A stretch of 26,861 nucleotides of DNA from an uncultured Anaerolineae bacterium (GTDB lineage Bacteria > Chloroflexota > Anaerolineae > Anaerolineales > UBA4823): assembly GCA_937129505.1 (NCBI GenBank), contig CAKZNJ010000527.1, positions 1 through 26,861 on the forward strand, in the 5' to 3' direction. A model generated the notes under the pieces. The model had not been told where the DNA came from. It worked only from the letters and a program-made list of their open reading frames with translations, and did no database searches. The position numbers were made by a program, and so were the translations under genes. The first letter of the stretch is position 1, and the number at the start of each line of letters is the position of its first letter. Positions 7,732 through 19,881 of this stretch are shown here, piece by piece.

Positions 7732-9900
7732 ATGAAGGTATCGATAGGTATCTTACTGGTGATAGTCAGTCTTGGACTAGCAGCTTGTCAATCCGCCCCC
7801 CCCGCCCCGCCCACCGAAGCACCGCAAATGCCAACCCCCGTATGTCCTACAGCCGTCCCCTGCCCGCCGGTTGTTGAACCGCTGGTCAAACAGGTGCCTT
7901 TTGAAGCTCAGTGGTCAGCTTCAGGTCATAACAAAGCTGACGCTTTAGCCTTTACCTACTGGAATGAAAGCGAGGAGAAGGCAATTCCCGTTGAATGCGC
8001 CAAATGTCATGGCGAGGCGGGTTTCTTGGACTTCCTCGGTGAAGATGGCACAGCAGCCGGCGTGGTAGACAAAGCCGCACCGCTTGGGACCACTGTGACG
8101 TGTGTAACTTGCCACAATGCTTCCACCGCTCAGATGACCAGCGTCAGTTTCCCCTCAGGTGCTGAAATTAAGGGACTCGGCGGCGAAGCGGTTTGTATGC
8201 AGTGCCATCAAGGGCGTGCTTCTAAGGTGAGTGTGGATCAGGCGTTGGAGCAGGCGGGCTTAACCACCGAGCTTGATAAAACCAATGCGGACCTTGGCTT
8301 CATCAACATCCACTACTACGCCGCCGCTGCTACCCTGTATGGAACACAGACCAAAGGTGGCTATGAATATGATGGAAAGAACTACGATGCAAAGAATGAT
8401 CACGTAGAGGGATTCGACACCTGCATCGGCTGCCATAACTCACACACCCTCGAGCTGAAGCTTGAAGCGTGCACTACCTGCCATCAAGGGGTTGCCAGCG
8501 TTGAAGATGTGCGCAAGATTCGCATGGCTGGCTCCGAGGCAGATTACGATGGTGATGGGGACATCCAAGAGGGTATAGCCAGCGAAATTGAAGGCTTGCA
8601 AGAGATGCTCTTCACTGCCATTCAGGCGTATGCCAGTGAGGTCGCTGGACAAGCAATCGGCTATAACCCCGAAGCGTATCCTTATTTCTTCAATGACACC
8701 AACAACGATGGATCCATCGATGAAAGTGAAGCTGTCTTCCCCAACCGCTATCAAAGCTGGACAGGGCGCTTGCTCAAAGCAGCTTACAACTATCAAACCT
8801 CTAAGAAAGACCCCGGCGCTTACGCACACGGCGGAAAATATATCGTTCAACTGCTCTATGACTCGATTGAGGACTTGAACACCAAGATCTCTTCCCCGGT
8901 CAGTTTGGCGAATGCACGGCGCATCGATCCCGGCCACTTTGCTGGCTCGGAGGAAGCTTTCCGCCACTGGGATGCGGACGGTGAAGTGCGTGGTGCTTGC
9001 GCCCGTTGTCATACTGCTTCTGGACTGCCCACCTATCTGAAGAACGGCGTTAACATTGCCGCGCCGCCCTCAAATGGTTTGAACTGTGCAAGCTGTCACG
9101 ATGACCTAGCTACTTTCACCCGCTTCCAAGTTGGGGCAGTCACCTTCCCCAGCGGGGCAAAATTAGACTTTGGCAACCCAGATGCTAACTTGTGCTTGAA
9201 TTGTCATCAGGGACGCGAGTCCACCGTCAGCTTGAATAGTGCCATTCAGGCGGCAGGTGTCCAAAATGACCAAGTGTCCGAAATGCTGAACTTCCGCAAT
9301 CCACACTACTTTGCCGCCGGAGCGACCCTGTTTGGCGATGAAGCAAAGGGCGCGTATCAGTTCAGCGGCAAGGAGTATGTGGGGCGTTTCCTGCATGTGG
9401 AGAAGTTTAGCACCTGCATCCAATGCCACAGCGCTCATGCCCTAGAAGTCAACGTGCAGGAGTGTAGCGGGTGTCATACGACAGTCAATACCAGGGCTGA
9501 TCTGCGCGCCATGCGTTTGAACACTCAGGGTGACTTCGATGGCGATGGGGACGAGGCAGAGGGCTTGGCTGGCGAAGTCCAGACCATGATGGAGAAGCTG
9601 TATGCTGCCATTCAGCAGTACGCCAGCACCAAAGTTCAGGCGCCTATCGTCTACGACCCACACGCTTACCCTTACTATTTCAATGACACCAATGGCAATG
9701 GGCAGGCAGACCCCGATGAGGTGGCTTTCCCCAACGCCTACAAGAGCTGGACTCCTAACCTGCTGCGCGCTGCCTATAACTACCAATGGGCACAAAAGGA
9801 CCCCGGTGCTTATGCTCACAATGCAAAATACATCTTGCAAGTCCTATATGACAGCATCCAAGCAGTGGGTGGCAGTGTCAGCGGCATGAAGCGCCCGTAA
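7732..9900 (+). CDS. Decaheme c-type cytochrome lipoprotein made of two tandem pentaheme units
   Basis: Lipobox LGLAAC; ten CXXCH motifs (CAKCH, CVTCH, CMQCH, CIGCH, CTTCH, CARCH, CASCH, CLNCH, CIQCH, CSGCH); duplicated AAYNY..KDPGAYAH..Y..Q.LYDSI helices. Confidence 0.93.
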   Translation: MKVSIGILLVIVSLGLAACQSAPPAPPTEAPQMPTPVCPTAVPCPPVVEPLVKQVPFEAQWSASGHNKADALAFTYWNESEEKAIPVECAKCHGEAGFLDFLGEDGTAAGVVDKAAPLGTTVTCVTCHNASTAQMTSVSFPSGAEIKGLGGEAVCMQCHQGRASKVSVDQALEQAGLTTELDKTNADLGFINIHYYAAAATLYGTQTKGGYEYDGKNYDAKNDHVEGFDTCIGCHNSHTLELKLEACTTCHQGVASVEDVRKIRMAGSEADYDGDGDIQEGIASEIEGLQEMLFTAIQAYASEVAGQAIGYNPEAYPYFFNDTNNDGSIDESEAVFPNRYQSWTGRLLKAAYNYQTSKKDPGAYAHGGKYIVQLLYDSIEDLNTKISSPVSLANARRIDPGHFAGSEEAFRHWDADGEVRGACARCHTASGLPTYLKNGVNIAAPPSNGLNCASCHDDLATFTRFQVGAVTFPSGAKLDFGNPDANLCLNCHQGRESTVSLNSAIQAAGVQNDQVSEMLNFRNPHYFAAGATLFGDEAKGAYQFSGKEYVGRFLHVEKFSTCIQCHSAHALEVNVQECSGCHTTVNTRADLRAMRLNTQGDFDGDGDEAEGLAGEVQTMMEKLYAAIQQYASTKVQAPIVYDPHAYPYYFNDTNGNGQADPDEVAFPNAYKSWTPNLLRAAYNYQWAQKDPGAYAHNAKYILQVLYDSIQAVGGSVSGMKRP

Positions 9901-10559: not shown

Positions 10560-10611
10560 ATTTTACCAGCATGTTTAAGATTGTGTATCAGAAGGACGTT
10601 ATAATTTGTCT
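10560..10611. promoter_or_regulatory. Compact divergent promoter; the plus-strand promoter appears to give a leaderless transcript
   Basis: Plus-strand TATAAT at 10600-10605, 6 nt before ATG 10612, with no SD; minus-strand TGGTAAAAT at 10568-10560. Confidence 0.55.
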
Positions 10612-12717
10612 ATGCTGCCTCTTACTTCCCAACAACTGCAGGTTGTTCAACACCCGATTGGAGAGCGTTGGTTTTTAGAAGGGAAGGCGGGCTGTGGGAA
10701 GACCAGCGCGGCTGTCGAGCGATTGCTTTACCTAATGCAAGCTGGCGTTCCCGCCCATCACATTCTTATCTACGTTCCCCAACGCACATTGGCGCAACCT
10801 TATCGGCAAGCATTAGCCGTCCCGGGCGTGATGGCTGGCGGCGCGGTGACCATTCTGACGTTGGGCGGCTTAGCGCGACGCACCATTGAGACCTTTTGGC
10901 CGCTAGTGATCAAAGAAGCTGGCTTCGGACAACCTGACGAATGGCCGGTCTTCTTGACCTTAGAGACGGCACAGTATTTTATGGCAAAACTCGTTGAGCC
11001 GCTTTTGGCACAAGGCTTCTTTGCTTCGGCAAATGTCCACCGCAATCGCCTGTATAGCCAAATTTTGGATAATCTCAACAAGGCAGCTCTCGTCGGCTTC
11101 CCTCACACCGAGATCGGCGAACGCCTAAAAAGCGCCTGGAGCGGCAGCCCGGGACAATTGAGCATTTATGACGATGCCCAAACCTGCGCCAATCTTTTTC
11201 GGCAATTTTGTTTGGAGCACAATGTGCTGGATTTCTCGCTTCAAGTGGAGGTCTTTCTCCGCTATCTTTGGAAAAATCCCCTCGTTCAGGAGACTTTACA
11301 ACGCCAATACCGTCATCTGATTGCCGATAACATCGAAGAAGATGCGCCGGTTTCGCACGACATCCTGCGCCAGTGGTTGCCGAACTTCGAGTCGGCTTTG
11401 TTAATTTACGACCATGACGCGGGCTATCGCGTCTTTCTCGGCGCTGATCCGATTTCAGCGTACTCGCTCAAACAGGCCTGCCAGGTTCAGATAACCTTTG
11501 AGACCTCCTTTGTTCAACCAGCTCCCCTGCAACGCCTTGAGCAAACTCTGCGATGGACATTCGGTGAGCCGCCACCACCGCCTCAACCCAGCCCCGCTTC
11601 GCCGCCAGTGTACCCTCTCTTCGAGCGCTTTTACCCCCAAATGCTGGAGCGAGTTGCCGAACAAGCGGCGCACTGCGTCCATGAAGAGGGGATTCCCCCT
11701 TCCCAAGTTGTTATCTTAGCCCCCTATCTATCCGACGCATTGCGCTTCTCGCTGAGCGACTTGCTGGAGAAACGCCATCTGCCGGTTCGGTCACATCGCC
11801 CCTCGCGAGCCCTGCGTGAAGAGGCAACCATCCAATGTCTGCTGACGCTGGCTGCGCTGGCTTATCCGCACTATCTACAGCCAAATCGCCTGCAAGACTT
11901 TGACCTGACGATTACTTTGCTCCAAGCCATCGAGGGCATGGACCTCGTGCGCGCCCGCTTATTGACCAATATTGTCTCTCGCGAAGTGGATGGCTTACCC
12001 ACTTTGACTTCCTTTGAACAAATCAAACCTGATGTCCAAGAGCGGATTACCTACCGCATCGGTGAAGCTTATGAGCGCTTGCGGCGTTGGATCGAGGATG
12101 TGCGAGCGGCAGACCCCCAAGAATTGGAAGTCTTTTTTGTGCGTCTGTTTGAAGAAATTCTCTCCCAGCCTGGTTACGGCTTTTACCGCAACGAACGCGC
12201 CGGTGAATTGACGGCGAATCTCGTTGAATCGGCGCGCAAATTTCGCCAAGCCTTTCGGGAGAGCATGAAGGTCAGCTTGGAAGAGCGCAATCGGGAGTAT
12301 CTGCGCATGGTGAGCGAAGGCGTGATCGCAGCGCAATACCTGCGCAGTTGGCAACCAGAAAATGAAGAGGCGATATTGATCAGCCCAGCCTATACCTACC
12401 TGTTGAGCAACCGCCCTATGGAGGTGCAGTTCTGGCTCGATATCGGCAGCACAGGGTGGTATGAACGCCTCTTTCAACCGCTGACCCAGCCCTACGTCCT
12501 CAGTCGGCACTGGAAAAAAGGACAACCTTGGACAGCAGATGACGAAGCGCGAGTTGCCGAAGAAAACCTGCGCCGCATTACGCTCGGACTGGTGCGCCGC
12601 TGCCGCCGCTCGATTTACGTTGGTTACTCGGAATACAATGCCAGCGGCTTCGAACAGCGCGGCGATTTGCTGCGAGTCTTACAGGAAAGCGTGGAAATTT
12701 TCGCAAGGGCAGCATGA
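10612..12717 (+). CDS. UvrD/SF1A-like helicase with degenerate motor motifs (AddB/AdnA/RecC-like scaffold subunit), no nuclease domain
   Basis: Q motif LTSQQ, Walker A GKAGCGKT, Ia IYVPQRTLA, Ib LTLGGLA; motif II LIADNIEED, V ILISPAYTY and VI EENLRRITLGLVRRCR are all degenerate. Confidence 0.78.
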   Translation: MLPLTSQQLQVVQHPIGERWFLEGKAGCGKTSAAVERLLYLMQAGVPAHHILIYVPQRTLAQPYRQALAVPGVMAGGAVTILTLGGLARRTIETFWPLVIKEAGFGQPDEWPVFLTLETAQYFMAKLVEPLLAQGFFASANVHRNRLYSQILDNLNKAALVGFPHTEIGERLKSAWSGSPGQLSIYDDAQTCANLFRQFCLEHNVLDFSLQVEVFLRYLWKNPLVQETLQRQYRHLIADNIEEDAPVSHDILRQWLPNFESALLIYDHDAGYRVFLGADPISAYSLKQACQVQITFETSFVQPAPLQRLEQTLRWTFGEPPPPPQPSPASPPVYPLFERFYPQMLERVAEQAAHCVHEEGIPPSQVVILAPYLSDALRFSLSDLLEKRHLPVRSHRPSRALREEATIQCLLTLAALAYPHYLQPNRLQDFDLTITLLQAIEGMDLVRARLLTNIVSREVDGLPTLTSFEQIKPDVQERITYRIGEAYERLRRWIEDVRAADPQELEVFFVRLFEEILSQPGYGFYRNERAGELTANLVESARKFRQAFRESMKVSLEERNREYLRMVSEGVIAAQYLRSWQPENEEAILISPAYTYLLSNRPMEVQFWLDIGSTGWYERLFQPLTQPYVLSRHWKKGQPWTADDEARVAEENLRRITLGLVRRCRRSIYVGYSEYNASGFEQRGDLLRVLQESVEIFARAA

Positions 12718-12746
12718 CTACTCTGAATCCTATGGGTAGATAAACG

Positions 12747-15023
12747 ATGAGTATCCGACTTCGACAAGCCCAAGCAGAGATAGTGGCTTACCGCAGCGGC
12801 AAGATGGGCATCCTAGCTGTGCCGGGCAGCGGCAAGACACTTACCTTGGCTTATCTTGCGGCCGAGCTTCTGACGCACACAACGCTTAAGAGGGGTCAGG
12901 AAATCCTCATAGTCACTTTAGTCAACTCGGCTGTCGATGTATTCACTCAACGCATTCGTACCCTCCTTGAGGAACGCGGCTTATTGCCGCTCAACTTTCG
13001 CGTGCGCACCTTGCACGGTTTAGCCAACGACATCGTTCGCGAGCGTCCTGAAGCGGTGGGGCTGGATGAGCGCTTTGTCATCTTAGATGAAGGCGAATGC
13101 AATCGCATTCTAGAAAGTGCCGTCAAGAGCTGGTTGAATCAGCACGGCAGCTTTCTGTTGGATTATCTCGATGAGAACCTGTCGTCCTATAATAAGCAAA
13201 AAGTCAAGGACAAAGAACTGCCGACCTTAGTTAAAGAGATTGCAGTTGCCTTCATTCGGGTTGCCAAAGACCGCCGTCTCACCCCTGCTCAACTGCGTGC
13301 TAGGCTGGACCAATTGCCGTTTCCTCTACCCCTGTTGGAGATAGGCGTCGCCATTTATTCGGACTATCAACGTTCGCTCAATTATCGCGGGGCGGTGGAT
13401 TTCGATGACCTCGTCCGCTTGGCTTACGATGTCCTGCAATGGGAGCCGCAGCTCTTAGAGCGCTTACGCTACCGCTGGCCCTATATCCTCGAAGATGAAG
13501 CCCAAGACTCGTCCTATATTCAAGAGCAAATCTTGCGCACTTTAGTTGGCGAAAGCGGAAATTGGGTGCGCGTAGGAGACCCCAACCAAGCGATTTACGA
13601 GACCTTCACCACGGCAAATCCCAAATATCTGCGCCACTTTGTAAATGAAGGCGGTGTTATCCGTCGCGATCTGCCCAATTCGGGGCGCTCAAGCTTAAGT
13701 ATCATGGAGTTGGCAAACCAGTTGGTGCACTGGACGATGAATCAACATCCACTGGAAGCAGCCAGAGACGGTCTGCAGGCACCCCCTTTCATCATCCCCG
13801 CTCCACCTGATGACCCCCATCCTAACCCCCCCGATGACCCAGCTAAGGTAATTCTTTACCCGAGAAAATCGAAGGTGAGCGATGAGATCGAGCGGGTGAC
13901 GAAGTCGTTGAAAAGATGGCTAAAGGATCACCCCGCTTGGACGGTAGCGGTGTTAGCCCCCACTCATGAGCTGGCATTTAAGGTAGTGGAAGCATTGAAA
14001 AGGGAAAACATCCCTTTCGAAGACTCATTACTGCGTTCCAGCGCCTCCACGCGCCGCGCCGCCCAACGCCTGCGCGATGTATTGCATGCCCTGGCTGATC
14101 CCCTCTCACCAACAAAACTTGCTGCCGCTTATCGGGCTTGGCGAATGGATGATGCCGAAAACCCAACTCTGCACGCTCAAGTCGAGTCCGATCGGTTGTT
14201 GCTCAGCCGTTGTCCCTATGTAGAGACCTATCTCTACCCTTCGCGCACCAGCGATTGGCTGATGGAAGTTTGCCCCCCTGAGCATGACGAAGATTTGTCT
14301 TTGCCCTTAGCCCAGCAAGAAACGTATTATCGGCTGGCTTGCTTCCGTGAGCTGGTGCGCCGCTGGCAGGGGGCGGTGCTTTTACCGATTGATCAATTGG
14401 TGCTGACACTGCAAGGGGATTTGTTTCGTGAACCGGCCGAATTGGCTTTGAGCCACAAGTTAGCGTTGATGCTGCGTCAAGCCAGTGATGCCAACCCCCA
14501 GTGGCGCTTGCACAATTTAGCTCAGGAAGTCTCCCTCATCGCCAGTAACGAACGCCGCTTTCTTGGCTTCAGCCGCGACGACAGCGGTTTTGATCCCCAA
14601 GCGTATGCTGGGCGGGTGGTCGTCTCAACGGTGCATAAAGCCAAAGGGTTGGAATGGGATCGCGTGTATCTCATCTCGGTTAATAACTATGATTATCCTT
14701 CGGGGGCGCCGTATGATACCTACAAGCCCGAACGCTGGTTCCTGCGCCGCCATCTGAACTTACAGGCGGAGACCTTAGCCCAACTGGAGTGGTTGATTTC
14801 GCCTGATGAGTATGGCTTTCCCGAGGAAGGCGAAGCAACCCTGCGGGCGCGACTCGATTACGTGCGCGAACGTTTGCGATTGCTCTATGTCGGCATCACC
14901 CGCGCCAAGCGCGAACTCGTCATCACCTGCAATAGCGGTCGTAATGACGACAAACTACCTGCCCTTGCCCTGCTAGCTTTGAGCGAATACTGGGAGAAAA
15001 CTTATGCCCAAACTGCCTCCTGA
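12747..15023 (+). CDS. ATP-dependent UvrD/PcrA-like SF1A helicase with intact motifs, no nuclease domain
   Basis: AVPGSGKT, RTLHGLA, LEDEAQD, VGDPNQAIY, STVHKAKGLEW and ERLRLLYVGITRAK. Confidence 0.93.
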   Translation: MSIRLRQAQAEIVAYRSGKMGILAVPGSGKTLTLAYLAAELLTHTTLKRGQEILIVTLVNSAVDVFTQRIRTLLEERGLLPLNFRVRTLHGLANDIVRERPEAVGLDERFVILDEGECNRILESAVKSWLNQHGSFLLDYLDENLSSYNKQKVKDKELPTLVKEIAVAFIRVAKDRRLTPAQLRARLDQLPFPLPLLEIGVAIYSDYQRSLNYRGAVDFDDLVRLAYDVLQWEPQLLERLRYRWPYILEDEAQDSSYIQEQILRTLVGESGNWVRVGDPNQAIYETFTTANPKYLRHFVNEGGVIRRDLPNSGRSSLSIMELANQLVHWTMNQHPLEAARDGLQAPPFIIPAPPDDPHPNPPDDPAKVILYPRKSKVSDEIERVTKSLKRWLKDHPAWTVAVLAPTHELAFKVVEALKRENIPFEDSLLRSSASTRRAAQRLRDVLHALADPLSPTKLAAAYRAWRMDDAENPTLHAQVESDRLLLSRCPYVETYLYPSRTSDWLMEVCPPEHDEDLSLPLAQQETYYRLACFRELVRRWQGAVLLPIDQLVLTLQGDLFREPAELALSHKLALMLRQASDANPQWRLHNLAQEVSLIASNERRFLGFSRDDSGFDPQAYAGRVVVSTVHKAKGLEWDRVYLISVNNYDYPSGAPYDTYKPERWFLRRHLNLQAETLAQLEWLISPDEYGFPEEGEATLRARLDYVRERLRLLYVGITRAKRELVITCNSGRNDDKLPALALLALSEYWEKTYAQTAS

Positions 15024-15852
15024 TTTCATTTTCAGTCAAGCAAGTTTGCAGGATTTCCTGACCTGTCCACGGCGGTTTTATTTGCGTTATCTGCGCCGGC
15101 TGGCTTGGCCTTCTGCAGCAGGGGGTGAGTCTTTCGAATGGGAGCAGCATCTCTCGTTGGCACAGGATTTTCACCGCCTTGCCCAGCAGAAAGCTCTAGG
15201 GATCTCCGATGAAACGCTCGAACCGCTCGTTCAGAAGCGTTCAACCGAGCTTTTTGAGTGGTGGACTCATCTCTGCCACTATTGGCAAAACGCCGCAAGG
15301 GATGTCCTGCTCGGCAGACGGTATGCCGAGTTAACTCTCACGGCATCCCTCACCAATGCCCGTCTGTTGGCAAAATACGACTTACTGGTTGCCCACCCCG
15401 ATGGACGGTGGAGCATCATCGATTGGAAGACAAATCGACGGCGGCCGGCAGCCTCGGAGCTGCAAAACCTTGTCCAATCTCGCCTCTACCCTTATCTGCT
15501 TGTACGAGCAGGGACAAGTTTGACCGGCGGGCAGGCGATCGAGCCAGAAAACGTGACTATGCTGTATTGGTTCACTCATGACCCTACTTTCCCAGAAATC
15601 ATACCCTATTCTCGAGAACAGTATCAAGCCGATGAGGACTTCCTCTTGCGCCTGATCGAAGAGATTCTCGGCCGGCAGGAAGCCGACTTTGTGCTGACGA
15701 CCGATGAACGCCATTGCGCTTATTGTCCCTACCGCACCTACTGTGACCGTCCCTTCTTGCCGCTCAGCGAACTCAACCCAGAAGAGAACGCCGAGCTTTT
15801 GGAGCTATCCTTGCCCCCAGATTGGGAGCAAATTGGGGAGATCGAGTATTAG
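15004..15852 (+). CDS. PD-(D/E)XK nuclease, AddB/AdnB/Cas4-like, with a 4-Cys Fe-S signature
   Basis: FSQASLQDFLTCPRRFYL (Cys1), AKYDLL (motif II), IIDWKT (III), QSRLY (IV), CAYCPYRTYC (Cys2-4); own GGGAG RBS; overlaps the helicase by 20 nt. Confidence 0.9.
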   Translation: MPKLPPDFIFSQASLQDFLTCPRRFYLRYLRRLAWPSAAGGESFEWEQHLSLAQDFHRLAQQKALGISDETLEPLVQKRSTELFEWWTHLCHYWQNAARDVLLGRRYAELTLTASLTNARLLAKYDLLVAHPDGRWSIIDWKTNRRRPAASELQNLVQSRLYPYLLVRAGTSLTGGQAIEPENVTMLYWFTHDPTFPEIIPYSREQYQADEDFLLRLIEEILGRQEADFVLTTDERHCAYCPYRTYCDRPFLPLSELNPEENAELLELSLPPDWEQIGEIEY

Positions 15853-15855
15853 CCG

Positions 15856-18198
15856 ATGACGATTTGGTTAGAGCCGCTTGATGTTCATGTGCCAGAGGCT
15901 TTAAGCGGGGCAATTGACGGACACCCTCTGCTCTTGCAGACTCTTGTTCAACGGGGACTGACCGATCCACAAGCTGCGCTGGCTTTTCTCGACCCGCTAG
16001 CCTACCAGCCAAGCTCGCCTTTTGAGATGCCCGGCATGGAACAAACGGTCTGGCGGCTGCAGCGCGCTTTACGGGAGGGGGAGACCATTGGGGTATGGGG
16101 AGATTTTGACGTGGATGGACAGACGGCAACGGCCTTGTTGGTTTCCGCTTTGCGCCGTTTAGGGGGGCGGGTCATCTACCATATCCCGATTCGTGAGCGC
16201 GAGTCGCACGGCGTCAATGTGCCTAATCTCCAAAAGCTTGCAGAGCAGGGAGCAAATCTGTTCTTAACCTGCGATACGGGCGTCAGCGCTGACGAGGCCG
16301 CTGTAGCTGCCCGGCGGTGGGGGTTGGATTTTTTGGTCACCGACCATCATGAACTTCCCCACGAGTTGCCCCCTGCTACCGTTATTGTCAACCCTAAGTT
16401 TTTACCTTCCCATCATCCGTTGCGGCACTTACCCGGTGTCGGGGTTGCCTATAAGGTTATCGAAGCGCTGTATTCCGCCGTGGGGCGGGAAGAGGAGCTA
16501 AGTGACTTATTAGACTTGGTCGCGCTGGGCGTCATCGCAGATGTGGCCGTCCTGCAGGGGGATACTCGTTATCTAGCCCAGCTTGGCATCCAAGTATTGC
16601 GGCAGAACAACCGTCTGGGGTTGCGCCTGCTGTTGGAAAATGCCGAAATGTCTGCCGCAGATTTGACCGAAGAGCAAATTTCCTTTGGTTTGGCGCCGCG
16701 CTTGAACGCCGTGGGGCGTTTGGCAGATGCCAACCCCATGGTCGAGTTCCTCACCACTCGGGATGAGAATTTTGCCCGCCGCCTTGCCAGCGACATCGAG
16801 GGTTTCAATGAGATGCGCAAACGTCTCACCGAGGAAGTTTTTCAAGCTGCCCTGCACCAGATGGAGCAAGATCGCTCGCTGGCAGAACAGGCAGTGTTGG
16901 TCTTATACCACCCGCTGTGGCATCCTGGCGTGGTGGGGATTGTTGCCAGCCGTTTGGTCGAACGCTTTCAGAAGCCGGCGATCTTGCTGTGCGGAGACAA
17001 TGAAAGCGGCGGGCGCGGCTCTGCCCGTTCCGTAGAGGGGGTGAATATCACCCAAGCCATTGCTGCCCATGCCGAAATGCTGAGCAGCTTTGGCGGCCAT
17101 CCCATGGCGGCCGGTTTGGCTTTCGTCCCTGGCGCCGACCTGCCCGAACGCATCGCCCGGTTTCGCCAAGCGATTGCTTACACCGTCCGCGAGATGGTGG
17201 GCGGCCGCGGGTTCGAAGCGCGTTTACAGTTGAGCGCCTACCTGCCTCTCGATCAAGTAGATTGGCTGCTGGCAGAACAATTAGAACGGCTGGCACCATT
17301 CGGGGCGGGCAATCCGGCCCCTCTCTTCGCCGCCCAAAATCTTACTTTGATTGGCTATTCTGAAGTAGGTCGTCAAAACGAGCACCTCATAATGGATGTC
17401 GAAGATGAGCAAGGCAACGGTTATCGGCTGATCTGGTGGCAGGGTTCGGGTTGGTCGTTACCCGAAGGCAAATTCGACCTCGCTTACCGTCTGCGCGGAC
17501 GCAGTTACAGTGGTGAGCGCTATCTCCAGCTCGAATGGGTAGATTTTCGTCTCTCTCCCCAAAAAATCGTGGCGTGGACTTCGGTGGCGGAGATCGAGTT
17601 TGAGGATTACCGCAGAGAGGAGAATCCCGAAAGACGACTGCAAGCCTTACGGGCAGCAGAAGAGCCGCTCGTTTGGGCAGAAGCGGCGGAGAGGTCTGCT
17701 CGGCAGGGAAAAGATCGCACCGAGTTGGTGCAACATCCCCATCTGGTGATCTGGACGATTCCTCCCAGTACAGCCGAGCTGCGCCGTGCTGTCCGACAAG
17801 TGCGCCCGCAGCGCATTTCGTTTTTTGCCATTGATCCCCAAACCGATGACCCCAATCGCTTGCTGGAGCGGCTGCTCGGCTTGCTTAAGTTGGTTTCCAG
17901 CCGCCAAAACGGGCAAACGACCTGGTCTTGGCTAGCAGCGGCAACCTGTCAGAGGGTGGCTGTGGTTCGCCTTGCCGTTCAGGTGCTGGCGGATCAGGGC
18001 TGGATGGAAGTGTTAGCTGCGGATGATCAAGGCTTTACCTTTGAACTGCGCCGCGCAAGAGCCAGTCCAAATGCCGCCGCTCGGCTGTCGGAATTAAAAG
18101 AACAACTGGAGGAATGCCGCGCTTTTCGCCGTTTCTATAGCACATGTTCCATAGATGGCTTGCGCGCTCATCTAGATTGGGAGGGGAAACCGGCATGA
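15856..18198 (+). CDS. recJ: Single-stranded-DNA 5'-3' exonuclease RecJ with a C-terminal extension of about 210 aa
   Basis: GDFDVDG, TCDTG, TDHH, LGVIADV, PRLNAVGR, GSARS, GGHPMAAG and PFGAGNP. Confidence 0.95.
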   Translation: MTIWLEPLDVHVPEALSGAIDGHPLLLQTLVQRGLTDPQAALAFLDPLAYQPSSPFEMPGMEQTVWRLQRALREGETIGVWGDFDVDGQTATALLVSALRRLGGRVIYHIPIRERESHGVNVPNLQKLAEQGANLFLTCDTGVSADEAAVAARRWGLDFLVTDHHELPHELPPATVIVNPKFLPSHHPLRHLPGVGVAYKVIEALYSAVGREEELSDLLDLVALGVIADVAVLQGDTRYLAQLGIQVLRQNNRLGLRLLLENAEMSAADLTEEQISFGLAPRLNAVGRLADANPMVEFLTTRDENFARRLASDIEGFNEMRKRLTEEVFQAALHQMEQDRSLAEQAVLVLYHPLWHPGVVGIVASRLVERFQKPAILLCGDNESGGRGSARSVEGVNITQAIAAHAEMLSSFGGHPMAAGLAFVPGADLPERIARFRQAIAYTVREMVGGRGFEARLQLSAYLPLDQVDWLLAEQLERLAPFGAGNPAPLFAAQNLTLIGYSEVGRQNEHLIMDVEDEQGNGYRLIWWQGSGWSLPEGKFDLAYRLRGRSYSGERYLQLEWVDFRLSPQKIVAWTSVAEIEFEDYRREENPERRLQALRAAEEPLVWAEAAERSARQGKDRTELVQHPHLVIWTIPPSTAELRRAVRQVRPQRISFFAIDPQTDDPNRLLERLLGLLKLVSSRQNGQTTWSWLAAATCQRVAVVRLAVQVLADQGWMEVLAADDQGFTFELRRARASPNAAARLSELKEQLEECRAFRRFYSTCSIDGLRAHLDWEGKPA

Positions 18199-18213: not shown

Positions 18214-19881
18214 ATGGATGACCGCCGCCTTAAAGCGCGCTATCGGCGCATCATGGCTTTCTTTACCCGCCTAACCGTGCGCTTTATTTTGTGGGAGATC
18301 CTCTTGCCTCGCCTAGGCTTGCGCGCTCTCACGCGTCGCACCCGTTCGCAGCGCATTCAGCAAGCAGCACGAGAGTTTCGCTTGCTCGCTGTGCAGTTAG
18401 GCGGTGTCATGATCAAGGTCGGGCAGTTTCTTTCGGCAAGGTTGGATATCCTCCCGCCCGAAGCGACTGAGGAGTTAGCAGGCTTACAGGACGAAGTCCC
18501 AGCCGAAGATTTCGAAGCCATCCGCCAATTGGCAGAGCAAGAATTAGGCGCACCATTAACCGAGCTTTTCGCTGTGTTTGATCCCTCCCCGTTGGCGGCT
18601 GCTTCTCTGGGTCAGGTCCATCGGGCTTGCCTGCGAGAAGATGCCCCTGCTGCGGCCGATTTCCGCAAAGTGGTTGTCAAAATCCAACGCCCTTATATCG
18701 AAAGCTTAATCGAGGTAGATTTGATGGCTTTGCGACGTTTCGGCGGCTGGTTACAGCGTTATGAGCCGATTCGCCGCCGGGCCGATGTGGCAGCATTAAT
18801 CGAAGAATTTTCCCTCACCATCCGCCGCGAGGTGGATTACCTTGAGGAGGGACAGAATGCCGAAACGTTTGCAGCCAATTTTCGCCAACGGGAGCGGGTA
18901 CATGTGCCCCGCGTGGTTTGGGAGCTGACCACGCAAAGGGTGCTCACCCTAGAAGACGTCTATGCCATCAAAATTACCGACTATGAGGCAATCCGCCAGG
19001 CCGGGATCGACCCCGCTGAGGTTGCCAAAGAACTGTTGGACACCTACTTGCAGCAGATCTTCGAAGACGGTTTTTTTCACGCCGACCCCCATCCCGGCAA
19101 TCTCTTCGTCACCCCGTTGAGTCCTTGTGACGAAGCGGGCTTAACTTGGCGCTTGACCTTTGTTGATTTTGGCATGGTGGGCGAGGTGCCCGCCAATCTG
19201 CGTCAGGGGCTGCGAGAGATGCTGATCGCTGTCGGCACCCGCGACGCTGCCCGTGTTGTGCGGGCTTACCAAACTCTGAATGTGCTGCTGCCCGGCGCGG
19301 ACTTGCAACTGATCGAGCAAGCCGAAGCCCAGCTTTTTGAGCGCTTTTGGGGGATGAACATGCGCGAGCTGACCCAAGTGAGCCACGCCGAGATGATGCG
19401 CTTTGCGCTGCAATTCCGTCAATTGCTCTATGATATGCCGTTCCAAATTCCCCATAATCTGTTGCTTCTTGGCCGCACTGTGGCAATCCTTTCGGGGATG
19501 TGCACGGGTCTGGATCCAAACTTCAACGTGTGGTATCAACTTCAACCGTATGCTGAGAAGCTCATTGCCGCCGAGGCTACCTCGAGCTGGCGAGAATGGG
19601 TAGCTGAAGCGACACAATGGGTACGCTTGCTGTTCATTGTGCCCGGCCGCGCAGACCGAGTGTTGCAGCTCGCCGAGAGCGGCAAGCTAAATGTGCAGAC
19701 CCCTGTGCTCGAGGAACAAATGCGCCGCATAGAAAAAAGCTTGCAACGGCTGTATCTCGCTTTCGTTGCGGGGATCTTCTTTCTCGGCGGAATTTTGTTG
19801 TTCCTTAATGGCGCAAGTGTGGGCGGCGCGCTCTGCCTTGCCCTAGCCGCCCTGTTGTTCTTGTGGTCTTTTGCAAAATAA
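18214..19881 (+). CDS. ABC1/AarF/UbiB-family atypical kinase with C-terminal TM helices
   Basis: IKVGQFLS, LQDEVP, AAASLGQVHRA, VVKIQRP, FHADPHPGN and DFGMVG. Confidence 0.92.
   Translation: MDDRRLKARYRRIMAFFTRLTVRFILWEILLPRLGLRALTRRTRSQRIQQAAREFRLLAVQLGGVMIKVGQFLSARLDILPPEATEELAGLQDEVPAEDFEAIRQLAEQELGAPLTELFAVFDPSPLAAASLGQVHRACLREDAPAAADFRKVVVKIQRPYIESLIEVDLMALRRFGGWLQRYEPIRRRADVAALIEEFSLTIRREVDYLEEGQNAETFAANFRQRERVHVPRVVWELTTQRVLTLEDVYAIKITDYEAIRQAGIDPAEVAKELLDTYLQQIFEDGFFHADPHPGNLFVTPLSPCDEAGLTWRLTFVDFGMVGEVPANLRQGLREMLIAVGTRDAARVVRAYQTLNVLLPGADLQLIEQAEAQLFERFWGMNMRELTQVSHAEMMRFALQFRQLLYDMPFQIPHNLLLLGRTVAILSGMCTGLDPNFNVWYQLQPYAEKLIAAEATSSWREWVAEATQWVRLLFIVPGRADRVLQLAESGKLNVQTPVLEEQMRRIEKSLQRLYLAFVAGIFFLGGILLFLNGASVGGALCLALAALLFLWSFAK

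Follow-up and report, generated by a model that had tools for sequence, protein, structure and literature searches.

Analysis of contig C527 of an Anaerolineales metagenome-assembled genome (MAG) from a hot-spring metagenome, a stretch of 26,861 nucleotides (nt) referred to here as the window, revealed a cassette of four co-oriented genes. These encode a helicase look-alike that has lost its catalytic residues (P0001), a helicase with a complete set of motifs (P0002), a free iron-sulphur (Fe-S) nuclease (P0003) and a long paralogue of RecJ (P0004). On balance, we lean towards the view that the four genes make one DNA-end-processing machine, specific for the 5' strand, in which a motor-nuclease of the AdnAB/AddAB type has been unbundled onto separate chains. 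The layout given in a preliminary description of this DNA, with a gap of 29 nt between genes 1 and 2, an overlap of 20 nt between genes 2 and 3 and a gap of 3 nt between genes 3 and 4, agrees with the list of open reading frames (ORFs; Table 1), and overlaps between the genes point to translational coupling. Such an arrangement goes well beyond chance, and it recurs in dozens of genomes. A full-text search of the literature found no description of the four-gene cassette; in the preliminary description, too, the architecture was not recognised as a named system.

The product of the first gene matches the N-terminal domain of UvrD helicases weakly (Pfam PF00580, 29.9 bits). In 21 diverse members of its family the Walker A residues G26, G31 and K32 are invariant, and motif II reads D-N-x-E-E. 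Profile-profile alignment with hhalign showed that the families of P0001 and P0002 are colinear over 653 columns (97% probability, E 1.2e-10). In this alignment N242 of P0001 stands opposite the catalytic Glu of DEAQD and A272 opposite the Gln of motif III, while motif V is deleted and the Arg of motif VI is retained. The AlphaFold2 (AF2) model of P0001 (pLDDT 89) has the full four-domain fold of superfamily 1A (SF1A) helicases, and Foldseek matches it about equally to UvrD, PcrA, AddB and AdnA/B, with E values from 1e-18 to 1e-22. A sequence search of the PDB did not distinguish AddB or AdnA from UvrD/PcrA as relatives of P0001, and the profile of the P0001 family reached AddB with E 2e-4 only, across the Walker A region. 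The ADDB_N domain (PF21445), which bona fide AddB proteins of the class do match, was found neither in P0001 nor elsewhere in the genome to which the window belongs.

No PDDEXK domain was matched by Pfam in P0001 or P0002, and both chains end with the helicase fold. Two statements of the preliminary description are confirmed, namely that neither helicase-like chain carries a nuclease and that a degenerate UvrD-like protein, here defined by the motif losses of P0001, is paired with an intact one, P0002. Since Walker A has been kept and the catalytic motifs have been lost, P0001 should be an ATP-binding paralogue of a motor, an AdnA/AddB-like subunit without a nuclease, that is predicted to bind ATP and neither to hydrolyse it nor to translocate. 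An inactive state that still binds ATP has been described for AddB and is suspected for AdnA (PMC13000450). Members of the P0001 family are about 700 amino acids (aa) long throughout, and the family counts more than 5800 proteins, almost all of them from Chloroflexota. Named relatives come from Anaerolineales, Ardenticatenaceae, Caldilineae and Thermoflexus, and the labels of ten distant members are all Chloroflexota except for one Acidimicrobiales.

The nuclease is encoded by a gene of its own. P0003 matches PDDEXK_1 (PF12705) with 99.9 bits, and among 21 homologues both the cysteines C21 and C238-x2-C241-x5-C247 and the nuclease residues D126, D140-W-K142 and Q158-x3-Y162 are invariant. The protein has the Fe-S pattern of the Cas4/RecB family (D...DxK, QxxxY, one N-terminal and three C-terminal cysteines), and its description as a stand-alone PD-(D/E)XK nuclease with four cysteines was correct. 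Its AF2 model (pLDDT 84) is closest to the nuclease domain of AdnA (7sjr_A; template modelling (TM) score 0.63, root-mean-square deviation 3.8 Å), followed by EXO5, the cyanobacterial ACE1 and AddB; a sequence search of the PDB with P0003 gave no match. Nucleases of the AdnA/AddB Fe-S type cut the displaced 5' strand (PMC13000450, PMC12094033). Two other identities of P0003 were considered and rejected. As a CRISPR Cas4 it reaches 24.7 bits on TIGR00372, where the cut-off is 65, and its match to the Argonaute-associated ACE1 (E 0.14) indicates distant kinship rather than orthology.

Co-folding of P0001 and P0003, in three runs with three controls and with shallow alignments that we made ourselves, gave an ipSAE of 0.81 against 0.00 for the best control. 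The same mark is reached by 58 of 80 solved complexes and by 2 of 110 mismatched pairs, although these counts hold only roughly here because of the self-made alignments. The predicted binding supports, without proving, the idea that P0001 and P0003 together constitute a split AdnA/AddB.

The C-terminus of P0003 (window 15769-15852) is a conserved acidic tail with the consensus D-F-E-Q-I-A-E-I-E-F and a terminal F or Y. The model leaves this tail disordered, and the predicted interface with P0001 does not include it; it is also present in two distant copies of the nuclease discussed below, those of Salinibacter (L136:14533-15417) and of locus L138 (13051-13860). In character the tail recalls those by which SSB docks, and it may serve to hold RecJ or the motor in place.

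P0002 scores 153 bits with PF00580 and 81 bits with UvrD_C, and all of its helicase motifs are readable (GSGKT, DEAQD, GDPNQ, HKAKGLEWD and GITRA). From its sequence, it is presumed to be the 3'-5' motor. It was rejected as the housekeeping PcrA or UvrD, given that it misses the NCBIfam equivalog cut-offs (137 bits against 911 for pcrA and 126 against 1144 for uvrD) and that a better PcrA-like gene lies on contig C340 of the same MAG. It was also rejected as AddA, being far under the addA_Gpos cut-off (62.6 bits against 707) and having no nuclease. Models of GajB match P0002, as they match any UvrD-like protein; the Gabija system (GajA-GajB) was discarded, since no GajA-type gene is adjacent and the context is a housekeeping one (Maf, multihaem cytochrome, ABC1 kinase). 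A third UvrD-like ORF of at least 584 aa, on contig C160 of the MAG (748-2499), runs off the end of that 2.5-kb contig.

The fourth protein exceeds the RecJ cut-off of TIGR00644 (469.2 bits against 396.9) and contains the Pfam domains DHH, DHHA1 and RecJ_OB, with readable DFDVDG, DHH and GGH motifs. RecJ is encoded twice in complete genomes of Anaerolineales, in a short form (~600 aa) and a long form (~760-770 aa), and it is the gene of the long form that neighbours the module. Among 121 genomes of the class, the 215-aa C-terminal extension of the long form occurs in 54, and 52 of these also have P0001; the extension stands without P0001 in 2 genomes and P0001 without the extension in 14, and 53 have neither. 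In one genome (G094), where genes 1 and 2 have a different location, the long RecJ gene still follows that of the nuclease. It is this dedicated long paralogue that leads us to regard RecJ as part of the unit.

Pfam found no significant family in the extension across nine homologues, giving weak winged-helix-like matches and one to PF10141 at E 0.18. PF10141, the C-terminal domain of Bacillota RecJ, is also the language-model look-alike of the extension, which is a lead only. The motif RAFR(R/K)(F/Y) of the extension is conserved in the copies of the window, Salinibacter and L138. A second RecJ-like gene of the MAG, 38% identical to P0004, is truncated at the end of its contig (C452:1455-2630), whose GC content is 45% compared with 53% in the window. 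This gene could be the short housekeeping RecJ or contamination, the MAG being 6.9% contaminated.

The genes of the cassette are inherited together. In 301 genomes of Chloroflexota, P0001 was found in 34, orthologues of P0002 in 33 and P0003 in 33, and the carriers are identical but for one genome each, even where the genes are dispersed. Synteny was examined in 57 Anaerolineae loci with at least 8 kb downstream. Genes 2 and 3 and recJ are co-oriented in 32 of them, genes 2 and 3 are present in 10, gene 2 only in 10 and none in 5; Anaerolinea thermolimosa IMO-1 is among those with all four genes. At locus L138 the same four-gene order, again tightly coupled, begins with a family member of only 28% identity. 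The genes are thus syntenic in relatives, as the preliminary description had proposed to check.

The cassette has also undergone transfer as a unit. On plasmid pSR56 of Salinibacter ruber M8 (Rhodothermota; NC_014028.1, L136 10001-17884) the four genes follow one another as in the window, genes 2 and 3 again overlap by 20 nt, and the identity is 38-43%. A quick tree places the P0001 homologue of the plasmid within the Anaerolineae clade, on a long branch, which is consistent with a move of the cassette as a block to another phylum. The plasmid is non-mobilizable and 56.5 kb in size; the GC content is 64% in the cassette and 60% in the remainder of the stretch that was retrieved, and the flanking genes encode an XRE regulator, a SocA-type antitoxin and a large DEAD/DEAH helicase. 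Independent confirmation of the unit can be seen in the plasmid copy and in the cassette with 28% identity. A distant pair of dead and live helicases on a JGI metagenome contig (L137:7865-13198) has no nuclease or recJ gene nearby and adjoins ParA, Mor and Replic_Relax genes, suggesting a mobile-element context for some members of the family.

It could be argued that there is no single machine, and that four DNA-repair genes with separate functions are merely co-transcribed. RecJ and UvrD-like proteins are common as stand-alone enzymes, gene 1 occurs alone or with gene 2 only in 15 of the 57 loci, and the interface modelling covers one pair. We nevertheless regard this explanation as improbable in view of the near-identical phyletic patterns of genes 1 to 3, a RecJ paralogue that tracks the module, the transfer of the cassette as a unit, the conservation of gene order at 28% identity, the gene overlaps and the strong interface prediction for P0001 and P0003. 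Moreover, without catalytic residues P0001 can hardly work alone. The shared phyletic pattern, the transfer and the predicted binding uphold the earlier proposal that the four genes are one conserved functional unit, AddAB/AdnAB-like with a detached nuclease.

In such a unit, P0002 would be the only working motor, an SF1A helicase tracking in the 3'-5' direction on the 3'-ended strand. Its colinear paralogue P0001 would bind ATP, without hydrolysis or translocation, and would act as a motor-like scaffold in the manner of AdnA or AddB. P0003, made separately and docked on P0001, would thread and cut the displaced 5' strand, and the long RecJ would then degrade the freed 5' single strand processively, leaving a long 3' tail that is ready for RecA loading and has no need for Chi-type regulation. 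RecJ is a 5'-3' exonuclease. In the preliminary description it was suggested that it may supply the activity on the second strand, a role that is not supported, since RecJ and a nuclease of the AdnA/AddB type both act on the 5' strand. With both enzymes on that strand, no 3'-strand nuclease of the AdnB/AddA/RecB type is present; a Chi-independent 3' tail is therefore predicted, and a Chi switch may be unneeded. The contact between P0001 and P0003 is a prediction from modelling, and we infer the heterodimer of P0001 and P0002, the physical coupling of RecJ and the strand polarity. The biological role would be the resection of double-strand breaks and perhaps the degradation of incoming linear DNA.

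The cassette can be compared with several known systems. The mycobacterial helicase-nuclease AdnAB (PDB 6PPJ, 6PPR, 7SJR and 9NP6) likewise consists of two colinear paralogous SF1A subunits, a motor and a motor-like partner. AdnB is a 3'-5' motor and AdnA binds ATP without evidence of hydrolysis, a division of labour like that proposed for P0002 and P0001. In AdnAB an Fe-S PD-(D/E)XK nuclease is attached to the motor-like subunit AdnA and cuts the displaced 5' strand (PMC13000450); P0003, provided in trans, is structurally nearest to the AdnA nuclease and is the predicted partner of the motor-like P0001. The two systems differ in that the subunits of AdnAB carry fused C-terminal nucleases, whereas the Fe-S nuclease of the cassette is a separate gene, and in that the cassette is without the 3'-strand nuclease that forms the C-terminal domain of AdnB. 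In addition, P0001 has lost the catalytic Glu, the Gln of motif III and motif V, while the motif set of AdnA is seemingly intact, the cassette includes a dedicated RecJ paralogue and P0002 is nearer in sequence to UvrD/PcrA than to AdnB/AddA.

AddAB (RexAB) of Bacillota, e.g. of Bacillus subtilis (PDB 3U44, 3U4Q and 4CEH-4CEJ), resembles the cassette in having one SF1A motor, an inactive subunit that keeps Walker A and an iron-staple nuclease for the 5' strand. The inactive subunit also comes first and the motor second, as in the addB-addA operons of Chloroflexota. Unlike AddAB, the cassette has no fused nucleases, no 3'-strand nuclease of the AddA type and no ADDB_N domain. The logic proposed for the cassette is also that of RecQ-RecJ of the RecFOR pathway and of the eukaryotic or archaeal 5'-resection pairs Sgs1-Dna2 and HerA-NurA, in which a 3'-5' helicase and 5'-strand nucleases produce a 3' tail with no Chi switch, and RecQ-RecJ shares the RecJ component. 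In contrast to RecQ, which belongs to superfamily 2, the helicase of the cassette is of the SF1A type, and it is accompanied by an extra dead paralogue, an Fe-S endonuclease and a special long RecJ.

Stand-alone nucleases of the Cas4 family have been linked to UvrD-type helicases before. Hudaiberdiev et al. (2017, PMC5704561) reported a monophyletic solo-Cas4 in many Chloroflexi, as well as operons of unfused UvrD and Cas4-like genes in Clostridiales, and genetic work in Synechococcus elongatus has pointed in the same direction (PMC10653904). In these systems, as in the cassette, the nuclease is linked genetically to the helicase outside CRISPR, but neither study describes a dead-helicase partner or the four-gene cassette.

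The co-operation of RecJ with helicases is well established, with RecQ in RecQ-RecJ and with UvrD in mismatch repair. It suggests another substrate, in which the complex acts on nicks, gaps or stalled forks: UvrD and RecJ would carry out excision or enlarge gaps, as in mismatch repair or the RecFOR pathway, and the Fe-S nuclease would cut flaps like Dna2 or EXO5. The sequence of P0002, closest to UvrD/PcrA/Rep, fits this possibility, as do the structural neighbours of P0003, which include the flap- and end-processing enzymes EXO5 and MGME1. No RecQ above the family cut-off was found in the MAG of the window, and differing substrates would explain a coexistence with AddAB more easily. On the other hand, end-resection machines (AddAB, AdnAB and RecBC) are typified by just such a combination, in which a live SF1A motor is joined by a dead colinear paralogue and an Fe-S nuclease. 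The best structural match of P0003 is AdnA, and a separate PcrA-like helicase and, apparently, a short RecJ are available for housekeeping excision. We consider action on nicks and gaps quite unlikely as the main function of the complex.

The relation of the module to AddAB was examined in the same 121 genomes of the class. The module is present in 66 and AddB in 36 of these; 28 have both, 38 the module only, 8 addB only and 47 neither. An anti-correlation with addAB, raised in the preliminary description, was not found, addB being present in 28 of the 66 genomes with the module and in 8 of the 55 without it. In two genomes that carry the module (G076 and G259), the presence of complete addB-addA operons was verified. 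This coexistence with canonical operons sets the module apart as a system of its own rather than a diverged form of AddAB. The expectation that no complete AddAB would be encoded in the same genomes fails in these two cases and is borne out in the genus of the window, where none of 7 genomes has AddB. AddB was also found in 1 of 15 other genomes of the family and in 2 of the 25 nearest relatives. In the MAG itself (88% complete), no AddA, AddB or RecC above the family cut-off and no further fused nuclease was found, and the module may be the sole machine of this kind in the lineage of the window.

Several observations weigh against a dedicated resection machine of the AdnAB/AddAB type. Foldseek does not separate P0001 from plain UvrD, and the sequence of P0002 is nearer to UvrD/PcrA/Rep than to AddA/RecB, so that the likeness to AdnAB may be convergent. 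Interface folding covered the single pair of P0001 and P0003, with shallow alignments. The 28 of 66 module-bearing genomes that also have addB may already be equipped for end resection. Several high-quality genomes from other families of the order lack the module, and related genomes are not independent, which means that the phyletic counts reflect few evolutionary events. A general search for sequencing runs, not aimed at RNA, listed a single hot-spring DNA run and no RNA run. Finally, a LexA-type box was not found upstream of gene 1; no LexA/Cheo box (GAAC-N4-GTTC) lies near 10560-10612, and the window as a whole has 10 such sites where 10.1 are expected.

A link with Cyanobacteria is suggested by the search results for P0001. 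A language-model search of the Atlas retrieved a 688-aa cyanobacterial 'recombinase family' cluster with no Pfam family (score 0.99), and a structure search retrieved three clusters of this kind, of 730-763 aa, with TM 0.86 over ~664 residues, against 0.65 for ordinary UvrD. Many cyanobacteria have two RecJ genes and no RecBCD (PMC5101192). In S. elongatus, the loss of a Cas4-like nuclease, of a UvrD paralogue or of the RecJ paralogue recJcy each raises both the maintenance of RSF1010 and natural transformation (PMC10653904). It is a tentative idea, and one that we hold to be rather doubtful, that a resection system of wider range is common to Chloroflexota and Cyanobacteria, with the cassette as its form in the former and the look-alikes of P0001, the Cas4-like nuclease, the UvrD paralogue and RecJcy as the counterparts in the latter. 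Such a system would stand in for RecBCD/AddAB where these are missing. It would resect the 5' strand at chromosomal breaks independently of Chi, destroy linear or plasmid DNA that enters the cell and possibly supply guides to Argonaute. The mention of Cyanobacteria in the preliminary description, as a group to be profiled, has the structural look-alikes of P0001 as its sole backing.

The same genetics would fit a complex directed mainly against foreign DNA, which would degrade the ends of incoming plasmid, transforming or phage DNA, much as RecBCD does when acting destructively, and might provide other defences with single-stranded guides. The complete cassette on the Salinibacter plasmid stands beside the XRE regulator and the SocA-type antitoxin gene, the distant pair of genes 1 and 2 adjoins ParA and Replic_Relax genes, the mutant phenotypes of S. 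elongatus concern plasmid maintenance and transformation (PMC10653904), and the cyanobacterial look-alikes of P0001 are close in structure (TM 0.86). The match of GajB models to P0002 points the same way, though these are generic UvrD models. Against this, the module is single-copy and vertically inherited. Two families have it in every one of their 27 genomes; in the genus of the window it occurs in 5 of the 6 other genomes, and in the family in 10 of 15, where the five genomes without it are 53-86% complete. All of its parts are kept even where the cluster has been broken up, and the neighbouring genes are housekeeping genes. There was no match in 50,697 phage records, and the plasmid search found the whole cassette on one plasmid only. 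P0003 is not an orthologue of the Argonaute-associated ACE1, and any homology of the cyanobacterial genes to the cassette is putative. A function mainly in defence therefore seems unlikely to us, less so than one in nick and gap repair.

Bacterial break resection is taught as the work of three fused motor-nucleases (RecBCD, AddAB and AdnAB) and of RecQ-RecJ. The cassette would be a natural version on separate chains, with only the 5'-strand nuclease and a RecJ of its own, and, if this is true, the Chi-regulated design with two nucleases is not obligatory. It would also be a simple system in which to study the separate contributions of the dead helicase subunit and the Fe-S nuclease. The module may be the means by which abundant Anaerolineae that lack AddAB or RecBCD initiate recombination, and the same may perhaps hold for many Cyanobacteria. 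The cyanobacterial genetics hint at a limitation of plasmid uptake (PMC10653904), which matters for the genetic tractability of such organisms.

The coordinates of the cassette are collected in Table 1. The MAG comprises 3.26 Mb in 631 contigs. The in-frame ATG listed for gene 1 is also its start in the ESM Atlas record. A divergent gene upstream of the operon ends at 10561, which leaves an intergenic stretch of ~45 nt. The TATAAT hexamer in this region suggests a leaderless transcript of gene 1; a consensus promoter scan listed no full -35/-10 pair in the region of 10600.

Table 1. Coordinates of the four-gene cassette and associated features in the window
Feature	Position	Strand	Remarks
Gene 1 (P0001, 703 aa)	10606..12717	+	ORF from TTG; probable start at in-frame ATG 10612
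Gene 2 (P0002, 758 aa)	12747..15023	+	Complete UvrD/PcrA-like SF1A helicase, without nuclease domain
Gene 3 (P0003, 282 aa)	15004..15852	+	Free-standing PD-(D/E)XK nuclease of the Cas4/AdnA/AddB type, four iron-staple cysteines
Gene 4 (P0004, 780 aa)	15856..18198	+	Long RecJ paralogue, putative 5'-3' single-stranded DNA exonuclease with intact DHH motifs
RecJ C-terminal extension (P0004 residues 566-780)	17551..18198	+	Specific to the module-linked paralogue
TATAAT hexamer	10600..10605	+	6 nt upstream of ATG 10612; possible leaderless-type operon promoter, read from the sequence

The locus is not a defence island, the setting that, according to the preliminary description, would have favoured an anti-phage role. 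The neighbours of the operon encode housekeeping functions, namely a 2-hydroxyacid dehydrogenase, an M32 carboxypeptidase, Maf, a multihaem cytochrome, an ABC1 kinase and an aldehyde dehydrogenase. The multihaem cytochrome (722 aa, window 7732-9900), upstream of the operon, has Cytochrome_C7, c3 and MtrC-like matches. The gene of the ABC1 atypical kinase (window 18214-19881) lies on the same strand as the cassette and starts 15 nt past the stop of recJ, so that co-transcription is possible.

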